Shown: positions 1 through 52,770 of the stretch, in pieces
How positions within the stretch are numbered: the first letter of the stretch is position 1
How the letters are laid out: every line of letters starts with the position of its first letter
NCBI GenBank assembly: GCA_040767525.1
Contig: JAXGOJ010000009.1
Location: 1,199 to 65,198, forward strand
Direction: 5' to 3'
Length of the DNA: 64,000 nucleotides
Source: Bacillota bacterium
Lineage (GTDB): Bacteria > Bacillota > Sulfobacillia > Fermentithermobacillales > Fermentithermobacillaceae
The notes under the pieces: model-generated
Seen by the model: the letters and a program-made list of their open reading frames with translations, nothing else
Database searches by the model: none
Told to the model about the DNA's origin: nothing
Position numbers and translations under genes: made by a program

Positions 1-31
1 CTAAGAACACGTCATATGCCAGTCCAGCCAC
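1..31 (-). CDS. 5' end of next gene, probably tRNA-guanine transglycosylase (tgt), cut by window edge
   Basis: GAGGG RBS then GTG GCT GGA CTG GCA TAT running off the window; identity rests only on the usual queA-tgt order. Confidence 0.35.
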   Translation of the reverse strand, partial: MAGLAYDVFL

Positions 32-33481: not shown

Positions 33482-33506
33482 CTCCCCACCGCCTTCTTGA
33501 CAAAAT

Positions 33507-34400: not shown

Positions 34401-34426
34401 TAGTTAAGATAACAAACAGGCTGAAA

Positions 34427-35380: not shown

Positions 35381-35401
35381 TGAGCTCACCTCTATTGAAA
35401 A

Positions 35402-35426
35402 GGGAGGCGCCTCTTACGCGCCTCCC
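35402..35426 (-). terminator. Stem-loop upstream of oppB-I
   Basis: GGGAGGCGC..GCGCCTCCC followed by TTTT on the - strand; a hairpin type common between oppA and oppB. Confidence 0.65.
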
Positions 35427-35446
35427 GAAAATCATGTTTCTTCGAG

Positions 35447-35486
35447 TTACTTGAGAAACACAGACTATCTTACGCAACACCAACAT
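35447..35486 (-). pseudogene. Possible 40-bp remnant of a deleted oppA
   Basis: GGGGG RBS, MLVLRKIVCV (signal-peptide-like start) abutting out-of-frame ..FLK-TAA, at the position expected for oppA. Confidence 0.5.
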
Positions 35487-35591
35487 ACCCCCTAAATTGC
35501 TGATGTGAAAACCGCAAGAAAAAATACTCTCCTCTCCATAATAGGATAATATTGGATAAGGCTCTTTCCTCTTGCGCTCTGAATTCTCTGA

Positions 35592-35619
35592 ATTCTACGA
35601 TGAATGCGTAATTTCCTGC
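35592..35619 (-). promoter_or_regulatory. SigH-type promoter for Opp system I
   Basis: GCAGGAAAT-N12-GTAGAAT matches RNAGGAWWW-N11/12-RNNGAAT. Confidence 0.6.
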
Positions 35620-35713
35620 ATTAACCCAAGAAAACACATTGCTGTATCACAAAATAACCAGGTAGAGTATGTTGTCCCGACAATTTTGAAGGCCCGGCTC
35701 TAGCCAAACCCCC

Positions 35714-36868
35714 TCAAAGGTTATGAATCTCTTTTATTGCCCTCGCGACTATTTCCATCTGCTCTTCAGTATTGAAAAAATTGATGCAAAACCGCACATT
35801 AGCAGGCCTGACTGTGGCGTATACCTTATGACTCTTTAGTATTGCCTGCACCTGATCCCGTGTTTCCTTACGGAAATTGGCCAGAATTATGCCGGAAAGA
35901 TGATCGCTCACCGGATACAGCCTTCGGGCGTGATCTCCCAGCACAGTATATAGATACTGCTGAAGCTCTCTTACACGGGCCTCGATATTGGCAATACCTA
36001 TTTCATTAATTAGCCCGGTAGAAGCGATAAGTGCGCATACACCGGCATGGTTGTGATTTCCGTTTTCAAAACGGCGGGCATCAGAATGCCAGTGGATGGT
36101 ATCGTCACAATATGGCGGATACGCCCTTGTGGGGCGCTCATAACTTTGATAACTGCCGTTTGGAGGAATGATCCTTTCTTCCAGCCCCTGACGGCAATAG
36201 ATAAAACCAACACCGTTTCGGGCCAGCATTCCCTTGTGCCCACCGCATGCCAGGAAGTCAATGTTCGTCTTTCTAACATTGATATTCATCCGCCCTATAG
36301 CCTGTATGCCGTCAACTATGAGCAAAATGCCCTTTTCCTTGCATATCTTCCCTATTTTCTCAAGATCAACAAACGAACCGTTAGAATACTGTACTGCAGA
36401 CACTGTAACTGCCTGAGTGTTTTCATCAATTGCGGCGATGATGTCGTCAGCTCTGACTCCAGCGGGAGGAGCATCTACCAGTTTGAGGTTAAGCCTTCCT
36501 TCATCCCGGCGGAGTAGCCAGGGAAACAAATTAGCAGGGTGCTCCTTATTGTATACCACTACGTTCTTGTGCTTGTCCCAGGGATAACCCATTGCGATAG
36601 CTCCTAAGCCGGTGGTTGTGTTATTTGACAAAGCTATCTCCCATGGGTCAGCCCCGATTAGTTTTGCGATGCCCTGCCTTGCCCTGGAATTCTCCTCGTC
36701 CCAGTTGCTCTCGGAACCGTAGCTTGAAATGAACTCTTCCATTTCATCAGCGTAAGCCTGTTGCACACACCTGGGAGGTACCGAGGTCAGGCCGCTATTA
36801 AGGTATACAACGTCTCGCAGGTGATCAAACTCTTCCTGTATTCGTTTTTCGGTTTTCGCACTAAACAT
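35714..36868 (-). CDS. PLP-dependent enzyme, aminotransferase class V
   Basis: VYLNSG, NTTTGL, EHPAN, VDGIQAIG, ACGGHKGML (PLP Lys), RRFENG. Confidence 0.9.
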   Translation of the reverse strand: MFSAKTEKRIQEEFDHLRDVVYLNSGLTSVPPRCVQQAYADEMEEFISSYGSESNWDEENSRARQGIAKLIGADPWEIALSNNTTTGLGAIAMGYPWDKHKNVVVYNKEHPANLFPWLLRRDEGRLNLKLVDAPPAGVRADDIIAAIDENTQAVTVSAVQYSNGSFVDLEKIGKICKEKGILLIVDGIQAIGRMNINVRKTNIDFLACGGHKGMLARNGVGFIYCRQGLEERIIPPNGSYQSYERPTRAYPPYCDDTIHWHSDARRFENGNHNHAGVCALIASTGLINEIGIANIEARVRELQQYLYTVLGDHARRLYPVSDHLSGIILANFRKETRDQVQAILKSHKVYATVRPANVRFCINFFNTEEQMEIVARAIKEIHNL

Positions 36869-36957
36869 GAAATCACCTCAATTTACATTGCTGAAGCACG
36901 TAATATTCCCTGTTGTCTGAACCAAAGTCTCCACATGTTGTTTCGGTGTTGGAAACA

Positions 36958-38187
36958 CTATTTTATCTCTCTCAGGCATACCTCAAGAGCCTCATCTGGA
37001 TCGCACAGGATGTCAGGGACAGTGCAATGCTCGGCATTGCTGCTTCCATCGGCGTTAAGGCCATTCTCTCCGGAGTAGCGGATGACCAACCCGCTTTGTG
37101 GCAGTACAGCGTGAAAAGGTGCAATGCCTATGCCGTCTCCGCCGGTGCGTTCGCCTACTACTGTGGCGTAACCGGTGGTCTTGCAGAACACGGCAAAAGC
37201 TTCACTGGATGAATACACCTTATTGCTGACCAGAAGCCAAACTTTCTCACAGCCGAAGTGATGCTCTGCATCAGGCTCAATAGTGTAGCCACGTTCAAGG
37301 AAATGAGTCAACTGATCCAAATCGTCCTTTTCAAAGTTAGGTAGATGGGGTAACCGGCTGATGGGTTTTACCTTGCCTTCCTCGTCCCCCAGTTCCTTGC
37401 ACTCATTATAACCACAGCGGATAAACTCCCTGTTTTCCTCGCTGACAGCCAGGGTTATGTAGTTGGCATTATGCATTTCTTTGCCGATAGTAGGAGCTAC
37501 CAGGAGCTTTTGCCAGTAGTCGGTAGCACCTCCACCGTTTTTACGGAAGTCCAGTATCAGGTGCTTGCAGCCCTTATGGCGACCGTAGAAGTCGAATACT
37601 ATCTCCCTGTCGCCGGCCAAACGCAGCATGTTCAAAGTTTTGACTTCTATCAGTGCCACATCATCAGACAGCATTGAGCACAGCACATTGACATCCTTCT
37701 CGTTGTCGCCGAAAACCGGGCTGGCCCCCTCAACCAGTTTTTCCGGAGCCTGGCCCTTCCAATAAAACTTACCGTCAGCTGCGGTGTCGTCAAAACGGGA
37801 GTAGAAACACTCGCTTACCTCTTGATTAACCGCGTCCAACCAGGGCTGGAACTCAGCTGGGTTGAACTTCTCCCAAGCCCCCATGCTGAAGGCCTTGTAG
37901 GTTTTCTGATAATCTCTGAACCGGGCAGGCTCAAACAAGCGAATGTGGGCGAAGAAACGATCAGTGCCCCTATCTTTGAAATCCTCGAAAACGCCAGCCA
38001 TAGCACGGCAAAACCCCAGGTCGTCCAGGGTGTTAACCACGCGTTCTTTGTGTCTGGCGTAAATTTCGTTCCAATCATAGCCCAGACGCCTCATAATACC
38101 CCGTACCGGAAAGGAGCTGTTGAGCACCTTCCACATATATTCATAATCGGCCAGCTTCTGCTGACCGGTAAGCTGCGTATGGTTCAT
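36958..38187 (-). CDS. S41 family peptidase, no signal peptide seen
   Basis: ILDFRKNGGG, VYSSSEAF (nucleophile Ser), VVGERTGGDG, TVPD. Confidence 0.88.
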   Translation of the reverse strand: MNHTQLTGQQKLADYEYMWKVLNSSFPVRGIMRRLGYDWNEIYARHKERVVNTLDDLGFCRAMAGVFEDFKDRGTDRFFAHIRLFEPARFRDYQKTYKAFSMGAWEKFNPAEFQPWLDAVNQEVSECFYSRFDDTAADGKFYWKGQAPEKLVEGASPVFGDNEKDVNVLCSMLSDDVALIEVKTLNMLRLAGDREIVFDFYGRHKGCKHLILDFRKNGGGATDYWQKLLVAPTIGKEMHNANYITLAVSEENREFIRCGYNECKELGDEEGKVKPISRLPHLPNFEKDDLDQLTHFLERGYTIEPDAEHHFGCEKVWLLVSNKVYSSSEAFAVFCKTTGYATVVGERTGGDGIGIAPFHAVLPQSGLVIRYSGENGLNADGSSNAEHCTVPDILCDPDEALEVCLREIK

Positions 38188-38235
38188 GCGGTTTATCCTC
38201 CGTCTCCAGATTCGAGTCTCTCTTTTGTGTGCTTC

Positions 38236-40152
38236 TTACTTTACATATTTATCCAACCACGCAATGACCTCATCATCATTGATACGCTGCTGTCTGGGAG
38301 TCATCACCGAGTGGCTGGCGTTGTGGAACAACACCATACGGGTAGGGATACCCCTTTCGATAAGAGCAGTCACCATCTGCTCGGCCTGTTCCACAGGACA
38401 GCGGAAGTCCTTGCCGTTTTGCAAAAACAGCGTGGGGGTGCTGAAACTGTCTGCGTATTTCAAGGGCGAATGCCACCAGAGTTTATCGATGTTTCGCCAC
38501 GGTGTGGCCATCTGCCCCCACTCGACAAAGTAGGATAGGTCGCTGCAACCGTACATTGATATCCAGTTAGATATGGAGCGTTGTGATATTGCCCCTTTGA
38601 AGCGGCCTGTATGGCCGATTATCCAATTGGTCATGTATCCGCCGTAGCTTCCCCCGGTAACCCCCAGACGGTGGCTGTCAATGTCGGGATACTGTCTTAC
38701 CACATGGTCAGTAAATGCCATCAGGTCGTCAAAGTCAATAGTACCAAATTTCCCCTCGAGGTCCATGAATACCCTTCCATAGTCAGTAGAACCCCGGGGG
38801 TTGCAAAACAACACAAAATATCCCTCAGCGGCGTAGCGCTGCATTGTTGGGTAAAGAAGAGAGGAGTAGGCAGACTGAGGGCCACCGTGTATGGACAGCA
38901 CAGCAGGATACTTTTTCCCGGGCTGATACCCGTGGGGAGGTAGAACCCATCCATATATGGTATAGCCGTCACTGTTGACAAAACTAACCGGCTGCGAGGG
39001 GCTTAATCCGTATTTTTCAGCCAGGCCTGCCGAAATCCGGGTGACAGCCCTGGAAGAATCCCCGCAAAGTCTGACCAGCTGCCGGGTTTCCAAGGGGCGG
39101 CGGCCAGTATAGAACACACAGTCCCCGGCCTTTTCCAAGGGCCCCTCGATTACGTATTCGGGGGAGCACAAAAACTCAAGCCGGCCTCCCGGGACCCATG
39201 TGTAAATTTCGGTCCTGCCATGTTTTCGAAACACCAGCCACATACAATCATCCATGGCAGCTATACCTATCAGGTGTTCGTCAGGTGATAAATCCACACG
39301 AAAATCACCTCCGTGAGGACTAACCGACATAAGGTCCATACCGTAGAAACTATCCTTCAGGTCACATCCACGAAAGTACACTCTGCCTCCGTATTCCACA
39401 CAATCCATCAACATGTATTTATCGTTTTTGAACAGCAAGATAGTCTTGCCGCTTTCAATGTCATAGGCGTAGGCATCGCCTGCCCGGGAAGTCTGGCCGG
39501 CCACTTCTTCACCCCAGAAATAGACTTGCCTCTTGTCCCGTGATAAAATGGGCACTACCCGGGAGTTCATTATCTGATTGGCTTGAAACAGCGGCTTTGT
39601 CACCGGAACAAGTTGTCCATCAGACATGTTGTATATGTAAATCCTTGACCGTTTCTTGTTTACATAGCCCCTGCCGTCAGCATGATACGGATACTCATCA
39701 TACACCTCATAAAGCTCTTGGTTGCCGTCTTGATCTGAAGAATTGTCGAATGTACCGTAGACCATCCATCTGTCCCGGTCTATCCTCTTGGCCTGGGCAT
39801 CGGCCACAGGTACCCGGAAGAGTTCCCTTGCCTCGCCACCGGTTATGTCCAGGGCATAGAAAACAGTAAGTGGTTTCTTATTATCAAACTGCTTCTTATC
39901 CTTTTCATCACGCAGATCGGAAAATACCACATTGTGATCGTCCATCCACAAGGCCCGGCCTTCATTTCCCGAGTATGTCAGCTGACGATTTGCGCCGCTT
40001 TCCACGTTATGCACCCAAAGATACGAGACATTCTTGTCCTCCTCCAGACATTGGCCGGCTACCCCAAAAATGATGTTCTTACCATTGGGAGAGATCGCGG
40101 CATCACAGGCGTTTTGGATTTCATTAAAAGCTTCGTTAGTGAACTTCTCCAT
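38236..40152 (-). CDS. S9 family peptidase (acylaminoacyl/dipeptidyl peptidase-like)
   Basis: IHGGP, NPRGS, TGGSYGG, KDFRC, ASHS triad; propeller-like N-domain. Confidence 0.93.
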   Translation of the reverse strand: MEKFTNEAFNEIQNACDAAISPNGKNIIFGVAGQCLEEDKNVSYLWVHNVESGANRQLTYSGNEGRALWMDDHNVVFSDLRDEKDKKQFDNKKPLTVFYALDITGGEARELFRVPVADAQAKRIDRDRWMVYGTFDNSSDQDGNQELYEVYDEYPYHADGRGYVNKKRSRIYIYNMSDGQLVPVTKPLFQANQIMNSRVVPILSRDKRQVYFWGEEVAGQTSRAGDAYAYDIESGKTILLFKNDKYMLMDCVEYGGRVYFRGCDLKDSFYGMDLMSVSPHGGDFRVDLSPDEHLIGIAAMDDCMWLVFRKHGRTEIYTWVPGGRLEFLCSPEYVIEGPLEKAGDCVFYTGRRPLETRQLVRLCGDSSRAVTRISAGLAEKYGLSPSQPVSFVNSDGYTIYGWVLPPHGYQPGKKYPAVLSIHGGPQSAYSSLLYPTMQRYAAEGYFVLFCNPRGSTDYGRVFMDLEGKFGTIDFDDLMAFTDHVVRQYPDIDSHRLGVTGGSYGGYMTNWIIGHTGRFKGAISQRSISNWISMYGCSDLSYFVEWGQMATPWRNIDKLWWHSPLKYADSFSTPTLFLQNGKDFRCPVEQAEQMVTALIERGIPTRMVLFHNASHSVMTPRQQRINDDEVIAWLDKYVK

Positions 40153-40167
40153 GGGTTATCTCCTTTC

Positions 40168-41250
40168 TTAAAGTACCAACAGTTCTTTCGGGGCATGGGT
40201 CAGGTTTTCAACCGCGTCACAGCCAACATACAACATATCTTCAATACGTACCCCCATCTTTCCAGGAATATAGATACCCGGCTCTATAGTGACCACGGCT
40301 CCCTGATTTAGCGGGATGTGAGCACCCACTTCCAAATAAGGGGCCTCTGCAACAGAAAGGCCCAGGCCGTGGCCAAGCAAATGGAGAAATTGCCCTTTGT
40401 ATTTTGTGCTCTCGATGTAGTCCCGGGCAGCAGCATCTATGTCATGACATGTAGCCCCTGCCCTGGCCGCGGCTATACCCAAACGTTGTGCCTGCAGTAC
40501 AGTTTCATATACTTCCCACATGTCGTCAGTGGCATGCCCCACAGCAAGAGTGCGCGTCATGTCAGAGTAGTAACCATTCTTAACTACGCCAAAATCCAGC
40601 ATAAGAAAGTCACCGGCTTTTATCACCCTGTCTCCGGTAACGCCGTGTGGCATACTTGAGTTTGGCCCAGACAAACTGAAAACCGGAAATGATAGATTGT
40701 CAGCCCCACGCCGGTACATAGCAAAAGTTAGCTCGTTGGCCACCTGCCGCTCGGTCACACCAGGGCGTATGAAGCTTAGAATGTCCTCAAAAGCGGCTTC
40801 GGCGATTCTCTGTGCCGCCAGAATGGCGTCAGCCTCTTGCCGGGATTTGATTTGCCTCCAACTTTCCACAATACCGCCAGCAGGCTTTAGCTCGGGGGTA
40901 AGGGCTTTTTTCAAGCTGCTATACATTGCCACTGAAGTGATGTCGTCTTCAAAACCCAATGTCTTTATGCCTGCATCACGACACAGGCTGTTGATCTGCA
41001 TATTGTATTCACTGTCATGAGCAATCCCAATCATACGGTAACCGTGACTGGCAGCATACCTGCCGGCTACCTCAGTATACCGGCCGTCTATCATAAGCCA
41101 TGCGCTTCCGGTCTTGTGGACGATTAGCACTCCGCCGGAAGATGAAAAGCCGCACAAATAACGGCGGTTTGGGCGAGAATTGGTATGAATCATCATGGCA
41201 TCCAGGCCACGCCGTTTTACTTCTTTGCTCAGTTTTTGAATGTTGCTCAT
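40168..41250 (-). CDS. M24 family Xaa-Pro peptidase-like protein
   Basis: DGRY, PHG, DFG, YSDMTRT, HLLGHGLG, TIEPG, RIED. Confidence 0.92.
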   Translation of the reverse strand: MSNIQKLSKEVKRRGLDAMMIHTNSRPNRRYLCGFSSSGGVLIVHKTGSAWLMIDGRYTEVAGRYAASHGYRMIGIAHDSEYNMQINSLCRDAGIKTLGFEDDITSVAMYSSLKKALTPELKPAGGIVESWRQIKSRQEADAILAAQRIAEAAFEDILSFIRPGVTERQVANELTFAMYRRGADNLSFPVFSLSGPNSSMPHGVTGDRVIKAGDFLMLDFGVVKNGYYSDMTRTLAVGHATDDMWEVYETVLQAQRLGIAAARAGATCHDIDAAARDYIESTKYKGQFLHLLGHGLGLSVAEAPYLEVGAHIPLNQGAVVTIEPGIYIPGKMGVRIEDMLYVGCDAVENLTHAPKELLVL

Positions 41251-41317
41251 TGTTTCTCCTCCCGATTAACATAAAGGTAGCAATAACCGGACCTCTTACC
41301 ATGCCGCCGGCCAACAG

Positions 41318-42289
41318 CTAATGCAAATGGCAAGCGACAAAATGATCGTTGCCTACATCTTTGAACTGGGGCTGCACCTTCTTGCATACATCCATACAGT
41401 AGGAACAGCGACCGTGGAAACGGCACCCTTTCGGAGGGCTTATGGGGCTGGGCAGGTCTCCCGGAAGTATGGTACGCTGTTTCTTCCTGCCTGGCTTGGG
41501 TACCGGCATTGCAGAAAATAACGCCCTTGTATAAGGGTGCAGTTGATTGTAGTATAGCTCACGCTCATCGGCCAGCTCCACTATTTTGCCAAGATACATA
41601 ACTCCAATACGATCAGAAACATGTCTCACAACGCTAAGGTCGTGGGAAATGAACAGGTATGTCAATTCCAAATCCCGCTTTAAATCGCTGAGCAAGTTAA
41701 GAACCTGCGACTGCACAGACATATCCAACGCCGAAACCGGCTCATCACATACAACAAAGCCCGGATTAACAGTAAGAGCTCTGGCGATAGCTATGCGCTG
41801 TCTCTGCCCACCGGAAAACTCATGAGGATAGCGATGGGCATGAAAGGGGCGCAGGCCAACCATCTTCAGCAGTTCTTTCACCCGATCTTCACTTTCTTTC
41901 TTGGTGCAAAGATTGTGGTACAGCAAGGGCTCCTGCAATATGGCTCCCACCGACATTCGCACATTAAGGGAGCCGTAGGGATCCTGGAATACTATCTGCA
42001 TGCGCGTTCGTACACGGCGCATTTCTTGCCTGGAAAGATCATCAAGGTCCTTTCCTTCAAAGATTACCTTTCCACTGGTTGGCTTTATCAGGTGAAGCAT
42101 TGTTTTGCCCAGGGTTGTCTTACCGCAGCCCGACTCCCCCACAAGGCCAAAAGTCTCACCTTTCCGGATGGATAGGCTCACATCATCCACAGCCTTAAGA
42201 ATGGCCTTACTATCAGACATTATGCCATCGCTTATGGTGAAATACTGACAAAGGTTCTTAACCTCCATGGTATTTGCAGCATTATTCAA
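41318..42289 (-). CDS. Oligopeptide ABC ATPase (OppF-like), system II
   Basis: [31 protein letters not shown]. Confidence 0.95.
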
Positions 42290-43280
42290 TGGTTTGCCCC
42301 CCCTCGCCGATCAACGGATAGTGGCAGCGCACACAATGCCCGCCTTCAAGTTCAAGCAGCCCGGGCTGCTCTTTTACACATCTTTCCTGGACGTGGGGGC
42401 ACCTGGGACTGAAACGGCACCCCTTGGGGAAAAACATGGGAGAGGGCACCACGCCATGTATCACGTTAAGACGCTCTACCTTCTCATCTACCGAAGGGAT
42501 GGAGCTGAGCAGGCCGTAAGTGTAAGGATGCCGGGGCCTGTTGAAAATCTTCTCGGTATCGGTGCTTTCTACTATTTGACCGGCATACATGACCATGACC
42601 CTATCGGCCACTTCCGCCACAATGCCAAGATTATGGGTTATCAGCAGCATTGCCATGTTTCTTTCTTTTTGTAAATCACCAATGAGTTCCAATATTTGCG
42701 CTTGAATTGTCACATCCAGTGCGGTGGTCGGCTCATCGGCAATAAGCAACCTTGGGTTACAAGCCAAAGCCATGGCTATCATAACCCGCTGGCGCATACC
42801 CCCGGACATATGATGAGGATAGTCCTTAACCCGTTTTTCAGCATCAGCAATACCCACTTTCTTCATCATCTTTCCAGCATACTCCGTAGCATGTCTTTCA
42901 TCGAGGCCAAGGTGCAGCCGAGCAACCTCGGCAATCTGAAAGCCAACAGTCAATACAGGGTTAAGGCTGGTCATAGGCTCCTGAAATATCATTGATATCT
43001 CGTTGCCCCGGACCTTCCTCATATCCTCATCTTCCAGCGAAAGCAGATCGGTTTTACCAAAAGTTATGGCATTTGCCTTTATCTCTGCCGGAGGGATTGG
43101 CAAAAGTCGCAGCACTGATAAGGCGGTAACGCTCTTACCCGAACCGGACTCACCAACCAGAGCAACTGATTCCCCCTCTTTTATATCGAAACTAACACCG
43201 GTTACAGCGGGAACAAACCCATCTGCGGTCTTGAAACCGGTGTGAAGATCGTCCAAATGAAGCAATACTTTGTCGCTCAT
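42282..43280 (-). CDS. Oligopeptide ABC ATPase (OppD-like), system II
   Basis: [36 protein letters not shown]. Confidence 0.95.
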
Positions 43281-43292
43281 GCCAGTACCTCC

Positions 43293-44219
43293 TTAACCCC
43301 TGGTCACGCGAGGATCCAACGCATCCCGCAGACCGTCACCGACAAAGTTCAGCGAAAGGGCAACGATAAGTATCAGTATTCCGGGGATAATGGCCATCCT
43401 GGGACTTGTGCGCAAGAATTTCTGACCTACTTTCAGCATTGCCCCCCAACTGGGTATTGGCTCTTGAACGCCCATACCTAAATAAGACAGGGATGATTCT
43501 GTCATTATTGCACCGGCTACCCCCATGGTACCGCTGACGATGACAGGGACAAGGGCGTTTGGCAATATGTGACGAAAAATCACCTTTACGTCACTGTATC
43601 CCAGAGCAAAGGCTGCCTGGACAAATTCCTGCTGACGGAGGGATAAAAACTGCGCCCTCACTTGACGGCAAATTCCCATCCAGCCAAAGATTCCAATTAT
43701 TATCATCACGTTGTAAATACTGGAAGTGACCATGGCATTAACGGTCAGTATAAGAAAAAACGTGGGGATGCATCTCAGAAACTCTGTAAACCGCATTATT
43801 ATCATGTCAACCATACCGCCGTAATATCCGGCAACGCACCCCAAGGGAATGCCGATTAACATAGATATACCCACTGAAACGAGGCCAACAGACAGGGAGA
43901 TCCGTCCACCGTAGATACAACGGGTAAGATAGTCACGGCCAAACTGATCCGTACCAAACAAGTACTTCCGGCTGAATGATAAAGGCTTTCCATCAGGCAC
44001 ATCTTCAAGATGCAGCTCATCAAATGGATAAGGGCAGATGTAAGGGGCAAATACTGCCATTAGTATCAGCACTATAAGTACCGTTGCGCCTCCCATGGCC
44101 AACTTGTGCTTTTTGAACCGTTTCCAAACAAGCATCCAAAAACTCTCGATTCTGCTGGAAAAAAAAGAATCCTCAATATCCTCAGGAACTATCGTCAATG
44201 CTCTGCCATCTTCGGTCAT
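43293..44219 (-). CDS. Oligopeptide ABC permease (OppC-like), system II
   Basis: [29 protein letters not shown]. Confidence 0.95.
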   Translation of the reverse strand: MTEDGRALTIVPEDIEDSFFSSRIESFWMLVWKRFKKHKLAMGGATVLIVLILMAVFAPYICPYPFDELHLEDVPDGKPLSFSRKYLFGTDQFGRDYLTRCIYGGRISLSVGLVSVGISMLIGIPLGCVAGYYGGMVDMIIMRFTEFLRCIPTFFLILTVNAMVTSSIYNVMIIIGIFGWMGICRQVRAQFLSLRQQEFVQAAFALGYSDVKVIFRHILPNALVPVIVSGTMGVAGAIMTESSLSYLGMGVQEPIPSWGAMLKVGQKFLRTSPRMAIIPGILILIVALSLNFVGDGLRDALDPRVTRG

Positions 44220-44238
44220 AGTACCTTCCCTCCTCTGC

Positions 44239-45210
44239 CTACGAATACTTGATGCGCGGGTCAACTAACACGTACAAAAGATCCGAAATCAATATGCCAA
44301 CCATAACCAATATGGAGGAAAAGAAGGTAACAGCCATAACCGCAGGATAATCTCTAGCCAGTATTGCCTGTGTGCCGTATCGCCCCAATCCGGGAAAGCC
44401 GAATACGTTCTCTATGACAAAAGAACCACCGATAAGGGTGGGCAGTGACCCGCCTAGCATAGTTACAATAGGTATGGCCGCGTTTCTGAATGCATGGGTC
44501 CAGGTTATGGTGCTTTCGTCAAGGCCCTTGCTGCGGGCTGTACGTATGTAATCCTGGTTCATAACTTCGAGGTAGCTGGAACGTTGATAACGCATCCACG
44601 AGCCCATGCCTCGCAAAGACAGGGCCACCACCGGCATTATCAGATGTTTTATTCTGTCCCATAGCATCAAATGCCATGGCCCGCTGATGCCTGCAGTGAC
44701 TAAACCCATGGATGGGAGCCACCCCAACGTAAGAGTGAACAGCAGAATCAGCATCATTGCAAACCAGAAGTTTGGAACGGACATGCCGGTAAAGGCAAAT
44801 ACCGACAAAACATAGTCAGACAGCTTGTACTGATTCTTGGCGCAATACACTCCAAGGCCTATTCCGGCAATTACTTCGATTGTAAGTGACAAGAAAGCCA
44901 AGACAGGGTAGGTACCCCAGAGGCTCCTTATCTCTTTTATTACAGGCTGCTTGCTTATGTAAGAATAACCGAAGTTTCCGGTAAGGACTTCTCTGAGCCA
45001 CTTTATGTACCGAACGTGCACTGGTTGGTTAAGGCCAAGCTTTTCGCGTATCATTTCAATCGCGTTAGGATCAATGTTCATCATCTCAGGATCCACATAC
45101 ATTGCAGCAGCATCGCCTGGTGCCAGGTTCATGATAATATACGACACTATGGTTATTCCCAGAAGCATCGGTATCATCAAGAGCAGGCGCTTCAAGATAT
45201 ATTTCCTCAT
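44239..45210 (-). CDS. Oligopeptide ABC permease (OppB-like), system II
   Basis: APGD, GNFGYS, DYIRTARSKGL, VDPRI. Confidence 0.95.
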   Translation of the reverse strand: MRKYILKRLLLMIPMLLGITIVSYIIMNLAPGDAAAMYVDPEMMNIDPNAIEMIREKLGLNQPVHVRYIKWLREVLTGNFGYSYISKQPVIKEIRSLWGTYPVLAFLSLTIEVIAGIGLGVYCAKNQYKLSDYVLSVFAFTGMSVPNFWFAMMLILLFTLTLGWLPSMGLVTAGISGPWHLMLWDRIKHLIMPVVALSLRGMGSWMRYQRSSYLEVMNQDYIRTARSKGLDESTITWTHAFRNAAIPIVTMLGGSLPTLIGGSFVIENVFGFPGLGRYGTQAILARDYPAVMAVTFFSSILVMVGILISDLLYVLVDPRIKYS

Positions 45211-45320
45211 TTCACCATTCCCCTCTGTATGTCATGTGTTTTTAAGCAAATGACAGGTATGATTGCAATGATTCCATAACCGGTCCCAGCAAAATAAGTG
45301 GCCTTCAAATTAGAATTGCA

Positions 45321-45343
45321 GGAGAGGGGCATTGCCCCTCTCC
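45321..45343. terminator. Stem-loop between oppA-II and oppB-II
   Basis: GGAGAGGGGC-ATT-GCCCCTCTCC perfect inverted repeat. Confidence 0.65.
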
Positions 45344-45361
45344 TTTACACAAAAAAACAGC

Positions 45362-46960
45362 CTATTTCTCGAAGTAGGCTTTGCCAATATTGATCCAGCC
45401 CTGGTAAAGGCCGGACATACCGCACTCATCAAGATTTACGTTAGAATTGGTACCCCAAATCCTTTCGGCGGAATAGAGCCACAGCATAGCACGGTCCTTG
45501 GTAACCTCGTACTGAATTTCATCCCACAACGATTTTGCGGTGGCCTCATCTGTTGCAGCCATGGCTTCAGCAAATTTCGCTTTTATATTGTCGTTTACAT
45601 ACGTAGTGTACTGGCCTTCAGAATACATCCCCTTATATCTGGAGGCAGCAGGGCCCATGGTCATGCCGTTATAGGCAAGTTCAAAATCCCTCTCGGGGCT
45701 AAATACCCTCTGGGTGAACACAGGGATATCTCCGGGATTCCATCTAATGTTGATGCCGGCCTTCTTGCATGTGTCAATCATCACAACGATGCTGGGATTA
45801 TCGGCGATGGATGTAATCATCTCAAAGTCAAGGACCTGGCCGTCCTTTTCGCGAATACCTTCTGAATTCAGCACCCAGCCATCATCCTCTAGAACCTCAA
45901 TAGCTTTTTCTACGCTAAACTCGAAGGCTAATGCGTCAGCAGCTGACGGGTTATAATAGGTATCCGCAGGGGTAAAGCAGCTTGCCATGGGAACAGCTCT
46001 TTCCTGGTTGGCAAGGATCTGGCTCTCGCGATCCATGAGGTAACTCAAAGCAATCCTAACAGGTAACTGGCTCAGCCTTGGGTCAGCATGGTTCATCATA
46101 ACAACCCGCATGTTTCCTGAAGGAAAGCCGGCAAAACTGCAGCCATCAGCACCGTCTAGTTTCTGGGCGAGAAGATACGAAACCTGCATTATTTGCACCT
46201 GGCCGGATTCAAAAGCAACCTCCGCGGCATCAGTATCGCCGATGAACTGGAGTATAATCCCATCAAGATAGGGCTTGCCATCCCAGTAGTCATCGAAACG
46301 CTCTACTTTTACGTATTCGCCAACTTTGTATTCGACCCACTTGAAAGGTCCGATACCTACGAAAGCCGAAGAATCAGAGACTTGATCCCATGTGGTAGGG
46401 TCTATTTTGCTCCAAATGTGTTCGGGAAGAACACAATACTCCATGAAATTCCAGGGAAAGAAGGGGTCCGGTTGTTTGAGAACATAGTCTACAGTGTACG
46501 TGTCTGTCTTGTTTACAGTAAAACCACTGTAATCATGGGACTTCTCAACACTATCGACTTTTTCATGATAATCATAGTAAAATACTACATCGTCAGCGGT
46601 AAACTCCTCACCGTCATGCCACTTCACGCCTTCACGCAAATGGACTGTATACGTCAAGCCGTCGTCGGAAAGGTCGTACCCCGTGGCCAGCCTTGGGACA
46701 AGATTGGCGTTGGCATCTTTAGCGAACAATGTCTCATGCATGCAACCCCGCAATAAACCGCCTGTTCCATCTCTGGTCAAATAGAAGTTTGGTTGCCGCA
46801 TATCCTGCCTAAGACGTAAGGTCATCCATCCGCCGTACTTGTCATCCCCAGACACATCGTCGTCAGGTTCAACAGGAGTAGGCGAACAACCTGTCACCAA
46901 AAGGCTAAAAACCATAACGGTAAGTATCATTACCAGGAAACGTGTCTTCTTGGTGATCAT
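45362..46960 (-). CDS. Oligopeptide-binding lipoprotein (family 5 SBP), system II
   Basis: Lipobox LVTGC, LREGVKWHDGEEFTADDV, GIGPFK. Confidence 0.93.
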   Translation of the reverse strand: MITKKTRFLVMILTVMVFSLLVTGCSPTPVEPDDDVSGDDKYGGWMTLRLRQDMRQPNFYLTRDGTGGLLRGCMHETLFAKDANANLVPRLATGYDLSDDGLTYTVHLREGVKWHDGEEFTADDVVFYYDYHEKVDSVEKSHDYSGFTVNKTDTYTVDYVLKQPDPFFPWNFMEYCVLPEHIWSKIDPTTWDQVSDSSAFVGIGPFKWVEYKVGEYVKVERFDDYWDGKPYLDGIILQFIGDTDAAEVAFESGQVQIMQVSYLLAQKLDGADGCSFAGFPSGNMRVVMMNHADPRLSQLPVRIALSYLMDRESQILANQERAVPMASCFTPADTYYNPSAADALAFEFSVEKAIEVLEDDGWVLNSEGIREKDGQVLDFEMITSIADNPSIVVMIDTCKKAGINIRWNPGDIPVFTQRVFSPERDFELAYNGMTMGPAASRYKGMYSEGQYTTYVNDNIKAKFAEAMAATDEATAKSLWDEIQYEVTKDRAMLWLYSAERIWGTNSNVNLDECGMSGLYQGWINIGKAYFEK

Positions 46961-47030
46961 AACTCAATTCTCCTTTCGCTTTTGACCCAGGAAAGTCTCT
47001 CGAACAAAACACTGGTTAGCAGCTATGTAC

Positions 47031-48080
47031 TTATATTGCTACAAGCCTGTGCTGCCCTTTTTGACAAGCCAAACGGGCAGCTACCTCTGCCGTCATCAGA
47101 TCCTGTATACCAATTCCGGTGCTATCGAACAGAGTTATCTCATTCCTGCTTCGCCGGCCGGGAATAACACCCCTGATAACGTCTCCTATCTCGGCAATAT
47201 CTCCTTTTTTCAATATCCCCCCCTTATGAGCTTTTTCACATTCTCCTACGGCAATCACTTGAGAGGTATCGTCGGCAAACACCCGGGCCATGCCCAGCAG
47301 ATTCTCTTCAATTTCCTGCTTCCCTTTCATGTCTGCACCGATACACGACAGGTGTGTGCCCGGCATCACCCATTCTGTCTTCACCAGCGCTTTCCGGGAC
47401 GGGGTAGCTGTGAGAATTATGTCTGCCTGACGGCAAGCCCTCTCCAAATTCTCAGAGACAGTGTACTCGATGTCCATCCGGCCAATCATCAGGTCGTAAT
47501 GAGGGGTTCCCCTGTAGTGACTGACATACTCGTTCACCATCTTGTCCTTAAGTCCGGCGGCAAATCTTCTTGCCTGCTCAAAGGACATGGGATCGTGGAT
47601 AGTGACTTTCTGGATACCCTCCATGACCTCGAGTGTAGCCATAATCAAGTTGATAGCCTGTGTACCGGCACCTATCATCAACAAGTTTTCAGAATCATGG
47701 CGGGCCAGGTACCTGGCACCTACCGCGCCGGCGGCACCTGTACGCATGCAGGTTATCCGGGTACCATCCATCACGCTCTTCAACTTGCCGGTCTCACGGT
47801 CGAAGATAACGATGGTACCGGTAAGGGCAGGAATCCCCAGCCGGACATTACCTGAAAACCAGCTTACCAGCTTCAACCCAAATATACCGGCACCGTCTAC
47901 GGTACCGCTCTTTATATCCATCTCTGCCTTACCATCTTCAAATGAGTGGCAGACCAAAGGGAACAACTGGGCCTCGCCGCTGCACTTATAAGCATAAGCT
48001 TGCCTTACGGCCTCAATAACGCTCTTCATATCAAGAACAGATGCTATGTCTTCTTGGCTTAGTATCATTACCTCCGGCAT
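47031..48080 (-). CDS. Ornithine cyclodeaminase / mu-crystallin family protein
   Basis: GLKLVS, ITCMRTGAAGA, IGAGTQA, GADMKGKQE, FDSTG..QD. Confidence 0.92.
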   Translation of the reverse strand: MPEVMILSQEDIASVLDMKSVIEAVRQAYAYKCSGEAQLFPLVCHSFEDGKAEMDIKSGTVDGAGIFGLKLVSWFSGNVRLGIPALTGTIVIFDRETGKLKSVMDGTRITCMRTGAAGAVGARYLARHDSENLLMIGAGTQAINLIMATLEVMEGIQKVTIHDPMSFEQARRFAAGLKDKMVNEYVSHYRGTPHYDLMIGRMDIEYTVSENLERACRQADIILTATPSRKALVKTEWVMPGTHLSCIGADMKGKQEIEENLLGMARVFADDTSQVIAVGECEKAHKGGILKKGDIAEIGDVIRGVIPGRRSRNEITLFDSTGIGIQDLMTAEVAARLACQKGQHRLVAI

Positions 48081-48090
48081 ATTGTCCTCC

Positions 48091-48702
48091 TCAGAACCAA
48101 AGTTGAATGTCGTCATCCCTGCGGCACTCTTCACGAAGAATTCTTATAGCAGCATCCTTGTCACGCATAAGCATAGCCCCTATCAGTTTCTTGTGCTCTC
48201 GATGGGGTTCCTGGCAAAACTCCTGGTATAACCTCCGGCTTGGGGATCTGACAAGCTTGGCAAATGCGTTTTGCACTGCCGCTTCAAGGTACTCGTTGCC
48301 GGTAATTTCGGCCATGGCAAAATGGAACCGCAAGTTTGCTTCTGCAAACTCCTCATAGGCTACGCATTTGTCCTGACAAACCCTGTAAAGCCCTTCTATT
48401 TCCTGATCGGTGCAGTTGGCAATGATGCTGGCAACCACACCTTGTTCCAGTGTGTATCGTAAAAAGAGCAGCTTGTAATACTGGCTTTCCGATACTTCGT
48501 TAACGAAGTATCCCAAACGCGGGTATTTTCGCAGATAGCCCTCATGCACCAATATGTTCAATGCTTCCCGTGCGGGAGTTTTGCTGACGCCGTAATGCAT
48601 CGCCACTTCTTTTTCCGTGATAGGTTCGCTGGCATCATATTTCATTGCCATAATGGCCCTTTTCAAAGAATTGTAAATGGCGGAAGTCTTGGATTCAGTC
48701 AT
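48091..48702 (-). CDS. GntR family regulator (FCD domain)
   Basis: YGVSKTPAREAL HTH; FH...TGNEYL...EH. Confidence 0.92.
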   Translation of the reverse strand: MTESKTSAIYNSLKRAIMAMKYDASEPITEKEVAMHYGVSKTPAREALNILVHEGYLRKYPRLGYFVNEVSESQYYKLLFLRYTLEQGVVASIIANCTDQEIEGLYRVCQDKCVAYEEFAEANLRFHFAMAEITGNEYLEAAVQNAFAKLVRSPSRRLYQEFCQEPHREHKKLIGAMLMRDKDAAIRILREECRRDDDIQLWF

Positions 48703-48795
48703 CTAACCACACCTCAAGGGAATCTTACTGATGTCGTCCCGACGGCTTCCTAATTACAGTCACCCATGATGAAACGTTAGGACCGTCCCGGCGTT

Positions 48796-49968
48796 TCACC
48801 TTATGGGACAGTTACGGGCAACCTCAAGTGCCTTTCTTATGTCATTTTCAATAGTGAAAGGTGCCACAGACATACGTATGAAGCGACCGGCACTGAGGCT
48901 CAAGAATACACCGCTTCTCTGAAAATACTCATACCCTGCCTTAAGATCGCTCATCTCAAAAGCTATACTGTGGCAACGCCGATCCTTGTCCGCGGGAGTG
49001 GCTATAACATAACCCTGATTCAGCAAGCCGTCAAACAGCATCTCCACAAGATTTGAGATATGTGCATAGATATTATCCACGCCAATGCCAATTACCTGTT
49101 TGAGTCCTGCATTTAGACTATAGATCCCGGAAAAGTTCATTGTAGAGTTTTCAAGTTTGCGGGCATCTTTGGGGTCCTTTAGGACAAGTTCCCATCTATC
49201 ACCGCTTTTGTCGATGCTAATACAATCGTTGGCAGCCGCATATACCGGCCAAACCTGCTCCAACAGCTCATCACGGCAATACAGAAAACCTATACCCTCA
49301 GTGCCCAGCATACCCTTATAGCAAGCAGATGATATGGCATCAACCTGCCAGGCTTCAGCGTCACACGGACAGAAGCCAAGGCTCTGTATGGCATCTACTA
49401 CCAGGTATATGCCCTTTTCGCGGCAGCGGCGGGCCAATTCTTGAATATCTGTCCGGTATCCGCTGCAAGACTGTACATGACTGATGACTATCATGCGGGT
49501 GTTACCGTCAACATGCTGCCACAGCAAGTCTGGGGTCACGCTGACCTGATCCGGGGATACGGCTATCCGGCACTCTACTCCCCTGGGCTGCAAATTAAGA
49601 CAGGGTATCAACACTGACGGGTGTTCTTGATCATCGGTGACCACATTGTCTCCAGGACGAAACGGAAAACCCTGAAGTATCATGCTTATGCCCTCGTTGG
49701 TGTTCTTGGTAAAGGCTATGTTCTTTGGATCTACTCCCCCAAGCAGTGCAGCTAAGAGCTGACGGGTCTCGGCCACGACACTTATTATATTGCCCTTTCC
49801 GGCGCCTGAGGCCTTGACTATTTCAGGCGAAACATCTGACCAATCCTCTAAGAACCGGTACACAGCTTCTTTTGCAAACAGCGAACCGGAATTTTCGTAA
49901 GCAATGTCTAAGAATGTAGTATTCTGCGCGGCTGGAAACTGCTCGCGCAGTCTGTTTACCCAGTCCAC
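48796..49968 (-). CDS. PLP-dependent enzyme, aminotransferase class V
   Basis: FTKNTNEGI, EHPSV, VDAIQSLG, SACYKGML (PLP Lys). Confidence 0.9.
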   Translation of the reverse strand: MDWVNRLREQFPAAQNTTFLDIAYENSGSLFAKEAVYRFLEDWSDVSPEIVKASGAGKGNIISVVAETRQLLAALLGGVDPKNIAFTKNTNEGISMILQGFPFRPGDNVVTDDQEHPSVLIPCLNLQPRGVECRIAVSPDQVSVTPDLLWQHVDGNTRMIVISHVQSCSGYRTDIQELARRCREKGIYLVVDAIQSLGFCPCDAEAWQVDAISSACYKGMLGTEGIGFLYCRDELLEQVWPVYAAANDCISIDKSGDRWELVLKDPKDARKLENSTMNFSGIYSLNAGLKQVIGIGVDNIYAHISNLVEMLFDGLLNQGYVIATPADKDRRCHSIAFEMSDLKAGYEYFQRSGVFLSLSAGRFIRMSVAPFTIENDIRKALEVARNCPIR

Positions 49969-50861
49969 TATTTGACCTTCTTTCTTTTCATTGGCTCAAT
50001 TGGGCCATATGCCTTATCGTGATATTTCCTGATATTCGCGGTCTTGTCGATGACCGGTATCAAAAGCGGTTTTGCGCTGGCCATAAAGAATGTAATGCCT
50101 GGCCCGTGGCCGCTGAAAACACTGTCACCATGGACGATAATGCCAATGCTGGCGGCGCCTTCCTGAAACTTTGCACCGTAGCTGGTATCGATGTCGTTGA
50201 CCATTACTATGTCGCCCAGTTTAAGCTCGTGCAGGCCGCACCGTTTTATGTGCTCCCAGTCAGAAGTCATAAAATCTACATCACCCATGGGCCTGGAGCT
50301 ACCCATACCTGATCCCATAAGGACGGCAGGTACCACGCCGGCCACAGGTACGTGAAGCTTACCGTCTTTTTCCTCTATGTCCATGGCTTCCAGACATTCA
50401 GGATCGATGGAATTCACGTGTACGTCTGGGTAATCCAAAAGTTTCAAGCCAGTACCATAGGCTACTACCTGAACCTGGTCCTTAATATGCATTTCACGCA
50501 GGTCCCTCTGGTCAAATTCAATAACTACATGCCACGCCCCCGCGTGCTTTGCCACCACGTAACCTTCTGCTCCCTCAGCATTGCCTCCTATCACCTCAGC
50601 CTTGTTCCCCATACAGCAGACAGTGTAGTAGCACATGCGCTCTTTTTCGTCAGGATTATGGGTAGATGCGCCTGGTTCCAAATGGTCAGCTGCCCAACCG
50701 TATGCAGAATCGCCCGCCATAATATCGTATGTAATACCGCCGCAGCCAGGAAGCGCGCTTAGGCCTCCTGCCCTGTTAGCCTCTAAGCCTTCGGGCCATG
50801 CAGGATGTCTGATGACGCCGGACACGACTGTCTTGATGACTTTATCCTTATTTGTACGCAC
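49968..50861 (-). CDS. DUF4438 family protein (TM1086-like), function unknown
   Basis: MRTNKD, PG.GGITY..GD...W.ADHLEPG, C.GN.A....G.A.G..G.V..KH.G, MGSG.G, LKLGD.V, HGD....GHGPG. Confidence 0.85.
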   Translation of the reverse strand: MRTNKDKVIKTVVSGVIRHPAWPEGLEANRAGGLSALPGCGGITYDIMAGDSAYGWAADHLEPGASTHNPDEKERMCYYTVCCMGNKAEVIGGNAEGAEGYVVAKHAGAWHVVIEFDQRDLREMHIKDQVQVVAYGTGLKLLDYPDVHVNSIDPECLEAMDIEEKDGKLHVPVAGVVPAVLMGSGMGSSRPMGDVDFMTSDWEHIKRCGLHELKLGDIVMVNDIDTSYGAKFQEGAASIGIIVHGDSVFSGHGPGITFFMASAKPLLIPVIDKTANIRKYHDKAYGPIEPMKRKKVK

Positions 50862-50879
50862 AAAAACCCTCCTCTTTGC

Positions 50880-50934
50880 TTGTGATATATCTGTGGTATA
50901 TCACAAATGTATTACCAACGTTTGAAGTTGTCAA
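50880..50934 (-). promoter_or_regulatory. SigA promoter with palindromic operator for the DUF4438 operon
   Basis: TTGACA-N17-TACATT (50934-50906) followed by TTGTGATATA-N7-TATATCACAA (50880-50906). Confidence 0.75.
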
Positions 50935-51028
50935 TACAGAATGTTGATGAAACACTGGTTCTTGAAAAATATCAGACTCTAGAGCAAACTCAGGGTGGCC
51001 TGAGGATTTCACCTCTTAGAAAGGTAAT

Positions 51029-51058
51029 GTAAGAGAGCTGAGCGCTCAGCTCTCTTAC
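51029..51058. terminator. Perfect 30-bp palindrome after the orphan oppA
   Basis: GTAAGAGAGCTGAGCGCTCAGCTCTCTTAC. Confidence 0.7.
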
Positions 51059-51069
51059 CATGGGCCAGG

Positions 51070-52653: not shown

Positions 52654-52770
52654 GTCTTAAACTCAGTCCCTTCCTTGATTCTTTGCTTAATATCTGATTG
52701 CCTCATCTACAACGGCACTACAGCGGTTATTGGTTTAGTGCATTGATCAAGACCGTCAAAACCCGGGCGT

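Follow-up and report, generated by a model that had tools for sequence, protein, structure and literature searches.

A thirteen-gene cluster with a putative role in peptide uptake and residue conversion in a Fermentithermobacillaceae bacterium, and the place of DUF4438 in it

In a 64-kb stretch of contig JAXGOJ010000009.1 (assembly GCA_040767525.1, a Bacillota bacterium of the Fermentithermobacillaceae; the whole stretch is called the window, and positions without another label refer to it) we analysed a block of 13 genes that begins with a gene of the DUF4438 family. The block combines two class-V fold enzymes dependent on pyridoxal phosphate (PLP), an enzyme of the OCD/mu-crystallin family, a complete Opp-type ATP-binding cassette (ABC) importer, three proteins of peptidase families and a GntR-type regulator. 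We read it as a GntR-repressed catabolic operon, made of at least three modules, for the uptake of short peptides and the use of one of their residues, a reading to which we give about half of our confidence. The DUF4438 gene is translationally coupled to the gene of the first PLP enzyme, yet it is a lineage-specific addition. An earlier note on this DNA had proposed a DUF4438-led pathway for peptides with an unusual residue; of that proposal, peptide uptake and intracellular processing by a single regulated unit was supported as plausible, and the role assigned to DUF4438 was not.

According to this reading, a family-5 binding protein and the Opp-type importer would bring in di- or oligopeptides, which would then be trimmed in the cytoplasm by exopeptidases (an M24B Xaa-Pro-type enzyme, an S9C-type carboxypeptidase and an S41-like protein). 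One of the released amino acids would next be converted by the class-V fold PLP enzymes, and the OCD/mu-crystallin enzyme would use NAD(P)H to reduce the product, a 2-imino or 2-oxo acid or a cyclic imine. The GntR/FCD protein would repress the promoter via a unique palindrome until a metabolite of the pathway binds the regulator. We infer the operon status, the repression, the order of the reactions and the chemistry of elimination plus imine reduction from the features laid out below.

Organisation and control region of the cluster

The block comprises 13 open reading frames (ORFs) between positions 50861 and 35714, all on the minus strand. As the earlier note had stated, they are intact, co-oriented and of the named families according to the ORF list and Pfam, and the Pfam profiles cover nearly the full length of all 13 proteins. 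In the direction of reading the order is DUF4438, a first PLP enzyme (PLP-a), a GntR/FCD regulator, the OCD enzyme, an Opp-type ABCDF set, M24, S9 and S41-like genes and a second PLP enzyme (PLP-b). The junctions can likewise be read off directly. Genes 1 and 2 overlap by one base in TAGTG (...CAAATA/GTG, gap -1), where the stop codon of the former meets the GTG start of the latter, just as had been noted before, and the spacers at the 12 junctions range from -44 to 151 nt, with seven of them between -44 and 15 nt. Gene 4 probably starts at ATG 48080, 10 nt past the stop of the GntR gene and behind a ribosome-binding site (RBS) of the sequence GAGGAGG, and not at GTG 48134, so that the apparent 44-nt overlap with the GntR gene vanishes. 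Co-orientation of the 13 genes is uninformative alone, since almost all long ORFs of the window are encoded on the minus strand and the GC skew is negative in every interval sampled from 30000 to 55000. No Rfam family was found in the window.

Ahead of gene 1 lies a sigma-70-type promoter match (TTGACA-17-TACATT; 50906..50934, minus strand) that agrees with the consensus at 10 of 12 positions. Directly after its -10 element follows a perfect 9+9 palindrome, TGTGATATA-N7-TATATCACA (50881..50905), which is a candidate operator. The promoter match was joint-best in the 18 kb scanned (35000-53000), where two other sites also reached 10/12; the 26 promoter-like matches found there, compared with 23.6 expected in shuffles, were no excess, and the promoter thus counts as a consensus match only. 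The palindrome TGTGATATA-N7-TATATCACA occurs once in the window, none of 100 shuffles gave a match, and it is single in the 1.85-Mb assembly even when one mismatch per arm is allowed. Its putative ligand is the product of gene 3 (48091..48702, minus strand), a FadR-type regulator with an N-terminal GntR winged helix-turn-helix (46 bits) and a C-terminal FCD domain (62 bits), which reached no equivalog cut-off. A palindrome over the transcription start together with a GntR/FCD gene within the block would be the expected picture of a locally repressed operon. Of the SigA promoter with an operator described in the earlier note, the 10/12 match and the genome-unique palindrome were retained, the former as a match to the consensus and the latter as a predicted binding site of the GntR/FCD protein.

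At the other end of the block, a strong GC hairpin with a T run (35402..35426, minus strand) is located 288 nt past gene 13, with 12 nt between it and the RBS of the permease gene that follows; it could either terminate the cluster or attenuate the next operon.

The sequence of the organism is near-complete (at least 0.95 of sampled words) in 14 DNA runs from 9 studies, labelled digester, biogas, bioreactor or simply metagenome, and it is partially present in RNA libraries. Contigs from four RNA libraries of four studies partly cover genes 1-5. Two junctions were bridged by such contigs, namely 1/2 (X18 record 32, 49817-50049) and 4/5 (X16 record 13, 46592-47092). In the four runs no RNA contig lay on 39072-41607, on 42242-44143 or on the binding-protein gene upstream of the cluster (51118-52385), and contigs cannot show absence. 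RNA contigs of three runs end at 48767-48800, in the spacer between genes 2 and 3, because a copy of a dispersed repeat of 29-31 nt lies there (48770..48798); a recombination joint at 48767-48800 was considered and rejected, as the repeat accounts for the contig breaks. The repeat is matched at more than 80 places, spread across many contigs of the assembly. Its copies often stand in close direct or inverted pairs, and it behaves like a REP-type element.

Predicted functions of the encoded proteins

The two PLP enzymes, PLP-a (gene 2, 390 aa, 48796..49968) and PLP-b (gene 13, 384 aa, 35714..36868; both on the minus strand), have the class-V fold (Aminotran_5) and share about 30% identity. The PLP-binding lysine is found in the stretch ...ACYK218G... 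of PLP-a, where Lys218 is invariant in 40 homologues, and in ...GGHKG... of PLP-b. The best NCBIfam match of PLP-a was TIGR01977 (154 bits vs a cut-off of 377; SufS 117 vs 475), that of PLP-b the SufS subfamily (135 bits vs 475), and neither gene met the family cut-offs for a cysteine desulfurase (SufS/IscS/NifS/CsdA). PLP-a gave at most 88 bits with solved desulfurases, and both enzymes gave at most 96 bits with any solved chain. The five best alignments of PLP-a to solved desulfurases, and most of the others, end at or before about residue 315, the longest at about 340, short of what we take to be the region of the catalytic Cys loop. The five best alignments of PLP-b end at about 305, and a few lower ones extend further. 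By eye, no HHC-type motif was seen in PLP-a or PLP-b; the majority consensus of the PLP-a family includes an R-C-H-S stretch. PLP-a represents an unnamed subfamily; the source names were all generic among the best 120 of 1,002 matching clusters, at 30-99% identity. Both enzymes resemble lyases or transaminases more than canonical cysteine desulfurases.

The NAD(P)-dependent enzyme of the OCD/mu-crystallin family (gene 4, 47031..48080, minus strand) matched OCD_Mu_crystall (PF02423) with 216 bits in two stretches, separated by an insert of about 30 residues. Its NCBIfam scores all stayed below the respective cut-offs: alanine dehydrogenase (AlaDH, TIGR02371) 237 vs 409, BhcD (NF045643) 233 vs 500, cyclodeaminase 213 vs 408, LhpI 193 vs 322 (PRK06141) and 73 vs 400 (NF045512), EutC 180 vs 471-472 and SbnB (TIGR03944, 4m54) 115 vs 327. 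Among solved chains, archaeal AlaDH (1omo/1vll) scored 180 bits, iminosuccinate reductase (6rqa) 157, pyrroline-2-carboxylate (Pyr2C) reductase (6t3e) 146 and thiomorpholine-carboxylate dehydrogenase (4bv8) 89. Gene 4 is nearest to members that reduce 2-imino acids or cyclic imines, not to those cyclising ornithine. For an enzyme of the archaeal AlaDH group, PMC4141209 describes AlaDH, N-methyl-Ala dehydrogenase and Pyr2C reductase activities and states that genes of this group often adjoin Ser/Thr dehydratase genes.

The importer is complete. It consists of a family-5 substrate-binding protein of the OppA/DppA/NikA type (gene 5, SBP_bac_5, 45362..46960), two Opp/Dpp-type BPD_transp_1 permeases, one of them with OppC_N (gene 6, 44239..45210; gene 7, 43293..44264), and two ATPases with an oligo_HPY tail (ABC_tran+oligo_HPY; gene 8, 42282..43280; gene 9, 41318..42289), all on the minus strand and assigned with Pfam. 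No equivalog-level match to a system of known substrate (Opp4, DppA, NikA, GsiB, CntA) was obtained: gene 5 scored best with Opp4A (132 bits vs a cut-off of 650), and the permeases reached 292 vs 450 with Opp4B and 336 vs 350 with Opp4C. The nearest solved chains of gene 5 were Lmo0135 (5isu, 168 bits) and AppA (1xoc, 145 bits).

Gene 10 (40168..41250, minus strand; M24+Creatinase_N) is, to judge from its alignments, an M24B peptidase of the Xaa-Pro dipeptidase/aminopeptidase P type close to solved prolidases. It matched the 'proline dipeptidase' 3q6d over its full length (280 bits), and the equivalog PRK09795 was not reached (237 vs 393). The S9 serine peptidase encoded by gene 11 (38236..40152, minus strand) matched 7ep9 with 382 bits (E 6e-113) and 5yzm with 193 bits, and it seems closest to S9C carboxypeptidases/acylaminoacyl peptidases. 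7EP9 is classed under subfamily S9C in PMC13181208, and its source in the reference list of that paper is Wang 2021, the title of which names carboxypeptidase S9Cfn from Fusobacterium. Gene 12 (36958..38187, minus strand) encodes a divergent S41-like protein, in which Pfam found no PDZ domain. Its S41 domain is weak (66 bits vs a cut-off of 24), and no solved chain gave more than 39 bits; the 3 listed of its 30 atlas feature matches were all Peptidase_S41 clusters, and the protein carries SSSEAF. The 'three atypical peptidases' of the earlier note were thus an overstatement, since the M24 and S9 proteins are near solved enzymes and only the S41-like protein is divergent.

Conservation in relatives and genomic context of DUF4438

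Conservation of the cluster was found to be modular. A DNA search in four relatives matched only stretches of ABC ATPases, plus the S9 gene of genome G007. Contig G021:C269 carries S9 (72%), S41 (70%) and the start of PLP-b in this order, and a genome of another genus (G054:C38) carries oppA-F, S9, S41 and PLP-b. In this latter region (L086, G054:C38:1-8750), in-frame stops and frame changes occur in oppC, oppD, S9, S41 and PLP-b; they reflect either decay or assembly error.

Homologues of the OCD enzyme comprised five genes in 4 of 32 relatives, and three of the five were accompanied by a PLP lyase-type enzyme, a dipeptidase and an Opp system. On G007:C47, genes for OCD, a class-V PLP enzyme (41% to gene 2), M24, GntR/FCD, oppB and oppC run in one direction. 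On G015:C108 (L094) and G053:C3 (L095), the order is Beta_elim_lyase, a small ORF, OCD, an M19 dipeptidase, SBP_bac_5 and oppBCDF. The set shared by L094 and L095 is present in two genera of the window's family and is an uncharacterised cluster in its own right. The fourth homologue (L137, G007:C28) adjoins a gene of the proline-racemase family, with a glycyl-radical enzyme resembling pyruvate formate-lyase nearby, and looks like a separate proline/hydroxyproline locus; the fifth has no PLP lyase, dipeptidase or Opp partners. The recurring unit is a PLP lyase-type enzyme, an OCD-type reductase, a dipeptidase and an Opp importer, with a GntR regulator in two cases. As DUF4438 is absent from all three analogous sets (G007, G015, G053), DUF4438 with PLP-a represents an addition in this species.

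The cluster is flanked by further transporter genes, i.e. a family-5 binding-protein gene upstream (51070-52653) and an orphan BCDF set downstream (31440-35380), the permeases of which pass the NCBIfam cut-offs of the nickel-type Opp2B/Opp2C. Homologues of the flanking binding-protein and permease genes are adjacent in all five of five relatives, but the upstream binding protein is most similar (52%) to another, paralogous system, found in G003. An older transporter operon may have received the cluster as an insertion. Two genes upstream of the cluster, an alanine-racemase gene is broken (52771-53535 and 53687-54058, minus strand), with profile positions 144-220 plus the C-domain in one frame, positions 1-77 in another and the middle missing; at least four intact genes of the alanine-racemase family are found elsewhere in the assembly.

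Gene 1 (49968..50861, minus strand) encodes a divergent DUF4438 paralogue of 297 aa, which scored 142.5 bits with PF14505 and 147.7 bits with PF20999 (gathering cut-offs 24.9 and 27 bits). It aligns over residues 1-280 (E 1e-70) with TM1086 of Thermotoga maritima (crystal structures 3dcl and 3n99), the only solved DUF4438 protein, and its predicted model (pLDDT 79.7) has the same fold, with a template-modelling value (TM) of 0.84 to 3dcl and a VIA Z of 34.2 to 3n99. The genomic context of TM1086 differs, as the Thermotoga-type loci L033 and L021 place DUF4438 between genes for methionyl-tRNA synthetase and rhomboid/TrkA. In the search for distant fold relatives, Foldseek returned TM1086 only and the atlas DUF4438 clusters only; a wide VIA-align search gave only small beta-barrels with Z of at most 9, within the common range of the tool (F1/V1-ATPase N-domains, Gar1 and the M42 aminopeptidase barrel domain (7/50 rows)). 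In the literature searched, in which TM1086 was judged by titles only, we found no function for DUF4438 or TM1086, in line with the earlier note, and the accession 'PF14505' is used there for another family.

Among 14 longer DUF4438 proteins, 13 are double DUF4438 proteins of about 550-650 aa and the remaining one carries LysM and 5'-nucleotidase domains; none of the 14 is a fusion to a PLP enzyme or a peptidase. Tandem DUF4438 gene pairs are frequent as well (L040, L043, L048, L062, L075, L082, L087, L089, L123, L136). Double proteins and tandem pairs are consistent with an oligomeric protein. The pairs in L048 and L075 are flanked by a short-chain dehydrogenase/reductase, a glyoxalase-fold protein and a class I/II aminotransferase, and the tandem loci L062 and L082 have a class I/II aminotransferase too. 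A predicted complex of DUF4438 with PLP-a scored 0.00 against a mark of 0.32, which is evidence neither way.

The genome holds two DUF4438 copies, that of the window and one on contig C3 (G000 C3:55394-56248, L004:10395-11249). The C3 copy belongs to the common form, which 23 of 24 genomes of this bacterial family contain. Compared with about 200 bits for the common form, the window copy scores 144 bits, and its relatives in a collection of 5.8 billion proteins comprise 18 clusters at 58-84% identity, beyond which the identity falls to at most 52%. PF14505 members as a whole make up 3,497 clusters in this collection. The common DUF4438 gene of G000 stands between an S9 peptidase gene (PD40 repeats) and a gene for a LUD-domain protein, with M20 peptidases nearby, and the order S9-DUF4438-LUD is also seen in G002.

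PF14505 was present in 63 of 401 genomes of the phylum. In a first sample of 81 loci (L003, L005-L084), searched by tblastn with the window proteins, class-V PLP homologues were detected only in L005, which has the same sequence as the window, and no OCD, M24 or S41 homologue was found near DUF4438 in any of the 81 loci. An S9 homologue was located 3-5 kb off in six near-identical loci, and Opp genes were nearby in four. Pfam analysis of sampled neighbours in 37 of these loci (dereplicated at 80% identity, very short contigs dropped) yielded a PLP enzyme in 8/37, a peptidase in 6/37, a peptide/amino-acid transporter in 5/37 and OCD in 0/37. A second sample covered 40 genomes from 40 genera with gene categories fixed in advance; neighbours at positions +-1..3 (240 genes) were compared with those at +-6..8 (205 genes) of the same loci, one locus having no far genes. 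PLP enzymes occurred near DUF4438 in 4/40 and far from it in 5/39 loci, the latter count including one class-IV aminotransferase outside the preset list. OCD gave 0 vs 0, and peptide/amino-acid transport 0/40 vs 1/39. For peptidases the counts were 12/40 vs 6/39, a non-significant difference (p=0.18), and much of this signal is shared synteny in related genera, e.g. an M42 trio with GH2, YhcN and LigD. The common form of DUF4438 is not linked to PLP, OCD or peptide-transport families. The earlier note had held that DUF4438 leads a conserved pathway and thereby gains a functional lead; across the 40 genera, the common form was largely without enrichment near the families in question, and the modules occur without DUF4438, so this claim was not supported. 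At L104:11112-12733, genes of LamB/YcsF (5-oxoprolinase subunit family) and of the D-glutamate cyclase family lie within three genes downstream of DUF4438.

None of the window-type DUF4438 loci elsewhere (L006-L012) has the partner genes of the window. Window-type genes were observed in five distinct contexts. The neighbour is the class-V enzyme in the window, a class-III aminotransferase in L006, a beta-eliminating lyase in L011 and a family-5 binding protein in L009; in L010 and L012 the gene stands behind RidA plus an amino-acid kinase. Three of these five contexts have a PLP enzyme directly alongside, vs 4/40 for the common form (p=0.02, in a post hoc comparison with very few contexts). 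The window-type protein might be an unrecognised partner of PLP-dependent elimination or transamination, either as an enamine/imine handler or as a self-assembling hydrolase feeding the PLP enzyme. In combination with the recurring PLP lyase/OCD/dipeptidase/Opp set it would then stand for an undescribed route in which a peptide-derived residue is deaminated by elimination and the imine is salvaged by reduction. We consider this proposal doubtful and assign it a low probability.

Related systems, alternative readings and implications

The earlier view of an undescribed pathway was supported in so far as no curated equivalog was reached and no matching characterised pathway was found in the literature searched. 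Several known systems are nevertheless instructive. In the beta-hydroxyaspartate cycle (BhcA-D), a PLP step yields a 2-imino acid, from which an OCD-family reductase makes the L-amino acid. Gene 4 resembles BhcD and 6rqa at the scores given above, with the BhcD cut-off unreached; the cluster differs in that it has no aldolase or fold-type-II dehydratase and is associated with peptide import and peptidases. A PLP eliminase acting together with an OCD imine reductase is known chemistry in that cycle, seen here only via the BhcD and 6rqa matches. The dpp (dciA) operon of Bacillus subtilis encodes the D-aminopeptidase DppA and the importer DppBCDE, and it likewise unites a peptide ABC importer and a peptidase in one regulated nutrient operon, but with other peptidase families and without PLP enzymes, OCD, DUF4438 or an internal GntR gene. 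Ectoine catabolism (EutBCDE/DoeA) employs an M24-family hydrolase, an OCD-family protein, a PLP enzyme, a GntR-type regulator and an ABC importer. Here, in addition to the EutC score, DoeA remained far below its cut-offs (84 vs 575 and 65 vs 613), the M24 protein of the cluster is far closer to Xaa-Pro dipeptidases, and its importer is of the Opp type. In staphyloferrin B formation, SbnA and SbnB are a PLP enzyme and an OCD-family dehydrogenase acting on an N-substituted amino acid; the low SbnB score of gene 4 sets the cluster apart, and SbnA is of fold type II, not class V, and belongs to a biosynthetic route with no link to peptide import. Assignments to the ectoine, Bhc and Sbn pathways were rejected on the NCBIfam scores. 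The LhpH/LhpI route for trans-3-hydroxy-L-proline (PMC4141209, PMC3958920) likewise has an OCD-family reductase in a catabolic cluster, and the archaeal enzyme belongs to the AlaDH-like group, the group nearest to gene 4. The difference lies in the proline-racemase-like dehydratase, which is missing from the cluster and has a separate locus of that kind in the relative G007.

A number of observations weigh against a single GntR-repressed operon for peptide uptake and residue use. Outside this species the complete order of 13 genes was not found (L005 being the same sequence), and a genome of the same genus, G001, has no such cluster at the DNA level. The module of G054 has no M24 gene and several of its genes contain stops. 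Orthologues of PLP-a (68-70%) lie among unrelated genes in G055 and G013, so PLP-a does not need the rest of the cluster. Since none of the 13 proteins reached an NCBIfam equivalog cut-off, the substrate cannot be named. Co-transcription, on which the earlier note relied, gained from the RNA contigs that bridge junctions 1/2 and 4/5; these are 2 of 12 junctions only, and assembled contigs cannot prove a single transcript. With the dispersed repeat in the 93-nt spacer between genes 2 and 3, and with as many as 151 nt between oppA and the next gene, internal starts or stops are possible. Finally, gene 12 reads TGGDG at what we take to be the site of the catalytic Lys motif of S41 peptidases, and it may not be a peptidase.

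Given its mosaic origin, the block may not be one pathway at all. In that case, three units of separate origin would lie side by side on the leading strand and serve general amino-acid and peptide metabolism: DUF4438 with PLP-a in an unrelated job of their own, GntR-OCD with Opp, and M24-S9-S41-PLP-b. The separate conservation of the modules in relatives agrees with such a view, as do the dispersed repeat in the spacer after gene 2, the location of nearly all genes of the window on one strand and the position of the 13 genes between binding-protein and permease genes whose homologues adjoin in 5/5 relatives, as expected for inserted material. The block is, however, preceded by a single good promoter match and a unique palindrome, seven of its 12 junctions are short or overlapping, it has a regulator gene inside, and a comparable set (OCD, PLP-V, M24, GntR, Opp) is found in G007. 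We regard independent units as somewhat unlikely.

If the block is a peptide-utilisation operon as we propose, its substrate could be a sulfur-containing, a proline/hydroxyproline-rich or a D-residue peptide, and each of these has some support and some contrary evidence. A substrate of the modified, cross-linked or D-residue kind proposed in the earlier note was neither borne out nor refuted. A route for sulfur peptides (Cys-Gly, cystine, glutathione-derived or lanthionine-type thioethers), in which the class-V enzymes would be C-S lyases and the OCD enzyme would reduce an imine or cyclic ketimine, is suggested by the PLP enzymes being nearest to the cysteine desulfurase, selenocysteine lyase and cystine C-S lyase families, by Lmo0135, which is linked to cysteine uptake, as the nearest solved relative of gene 5, by the presence of thiomorpholine-carboxylate dehydrogenase (4bv8, 89 bits) in the OCD family and by a gamma-glutamyltranspeptidase near the DUF4438 pair in L089. 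All PLP matches are, however, far under the family cut-offs, and the desulfurase alignments mostly stop before the presumed catalytic Cys loop, so the chemistry cannot be read from them; Pfam detected no SufE/SufU or rhodanese among the cluster genes. We hold this route to be improbable. A route for proline or hydroxyproline peptides, which we consider very improbable, would combine an M24 prolidase, an S9 prolyl peptidase, the OCD enzyme as the Pyr2C reductase of the trans-3-hydroxyproline route and DUF4438 as a dehydratase. The M24 protein is indeed nearest to the 'proline dipeptidase' 3q6d, gene 4 matches the Pyr2C reductase 6t3e (146 bits), and the trans-3-hydroxyproline pathway is known from PMC3958920 and PMC4141209. 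On the other hand, Pfam found no proline-racemase-like gene among the 13 genes or the five flanking genes scanned, G007 keeps an OCD paralogue with Pro_racemase and a glycyl-radical enzyme at a separate locus, the S9 protein is nearest to S9C carboxypeptidases and not to prolyl oligopeptidases, the LhpI equivalogs were not reached, and the two PLP enzymes would have no role.

The third candidate, D-residue or cell-wall peptides, would require a class-V epimerase or an enzyme specific for D-amino acids and would place DUF4438 in D-peptide breakdown. It is favoured by the broken alanine-racemase gene two genes upstream with its at least four intact paralogues in the assembly, by the DUF4438 genes that adjoin an M55 D-aminopeptidase (L015, L070, L101) or S58 (L015, L016, L056, L099-L101) and by the M19 dipeptidase used in the analogous clusters of G015 and G053; M19 dipeptidases prefer L-Xaa-D-Xaa. 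No LD-carboxypeptidase, NlpC/P60 or dipeptide epimerase was found among the cluster genes with Pfam, however, and the excess of peptidases near DUF4438 was non-significant and in large part shared synteny. We would be surprised if this route proved right.

For DUF4438 the result is mostly cautionary. As the common form is unlinked to these enzymes, the operon is unfit for annotating the DUF4438 family, and only a rare divergent subfamily hints at a link to PLP chemistry. Two leads merit tests, this PLP-linked subfamily and the recurrent PLP/OCD/dipeptidase/Opp set. Many Opp-type importers of unknown substrate are encoded by the peptide-fermenting bacteria of anaerobic digesters, and the repeated occurrence of a dipeptidase, a PLP lyase and an OCD reductase next to importers of this type suggests a way of using a particular peptide-borne residue that can be tested and may be widespread.

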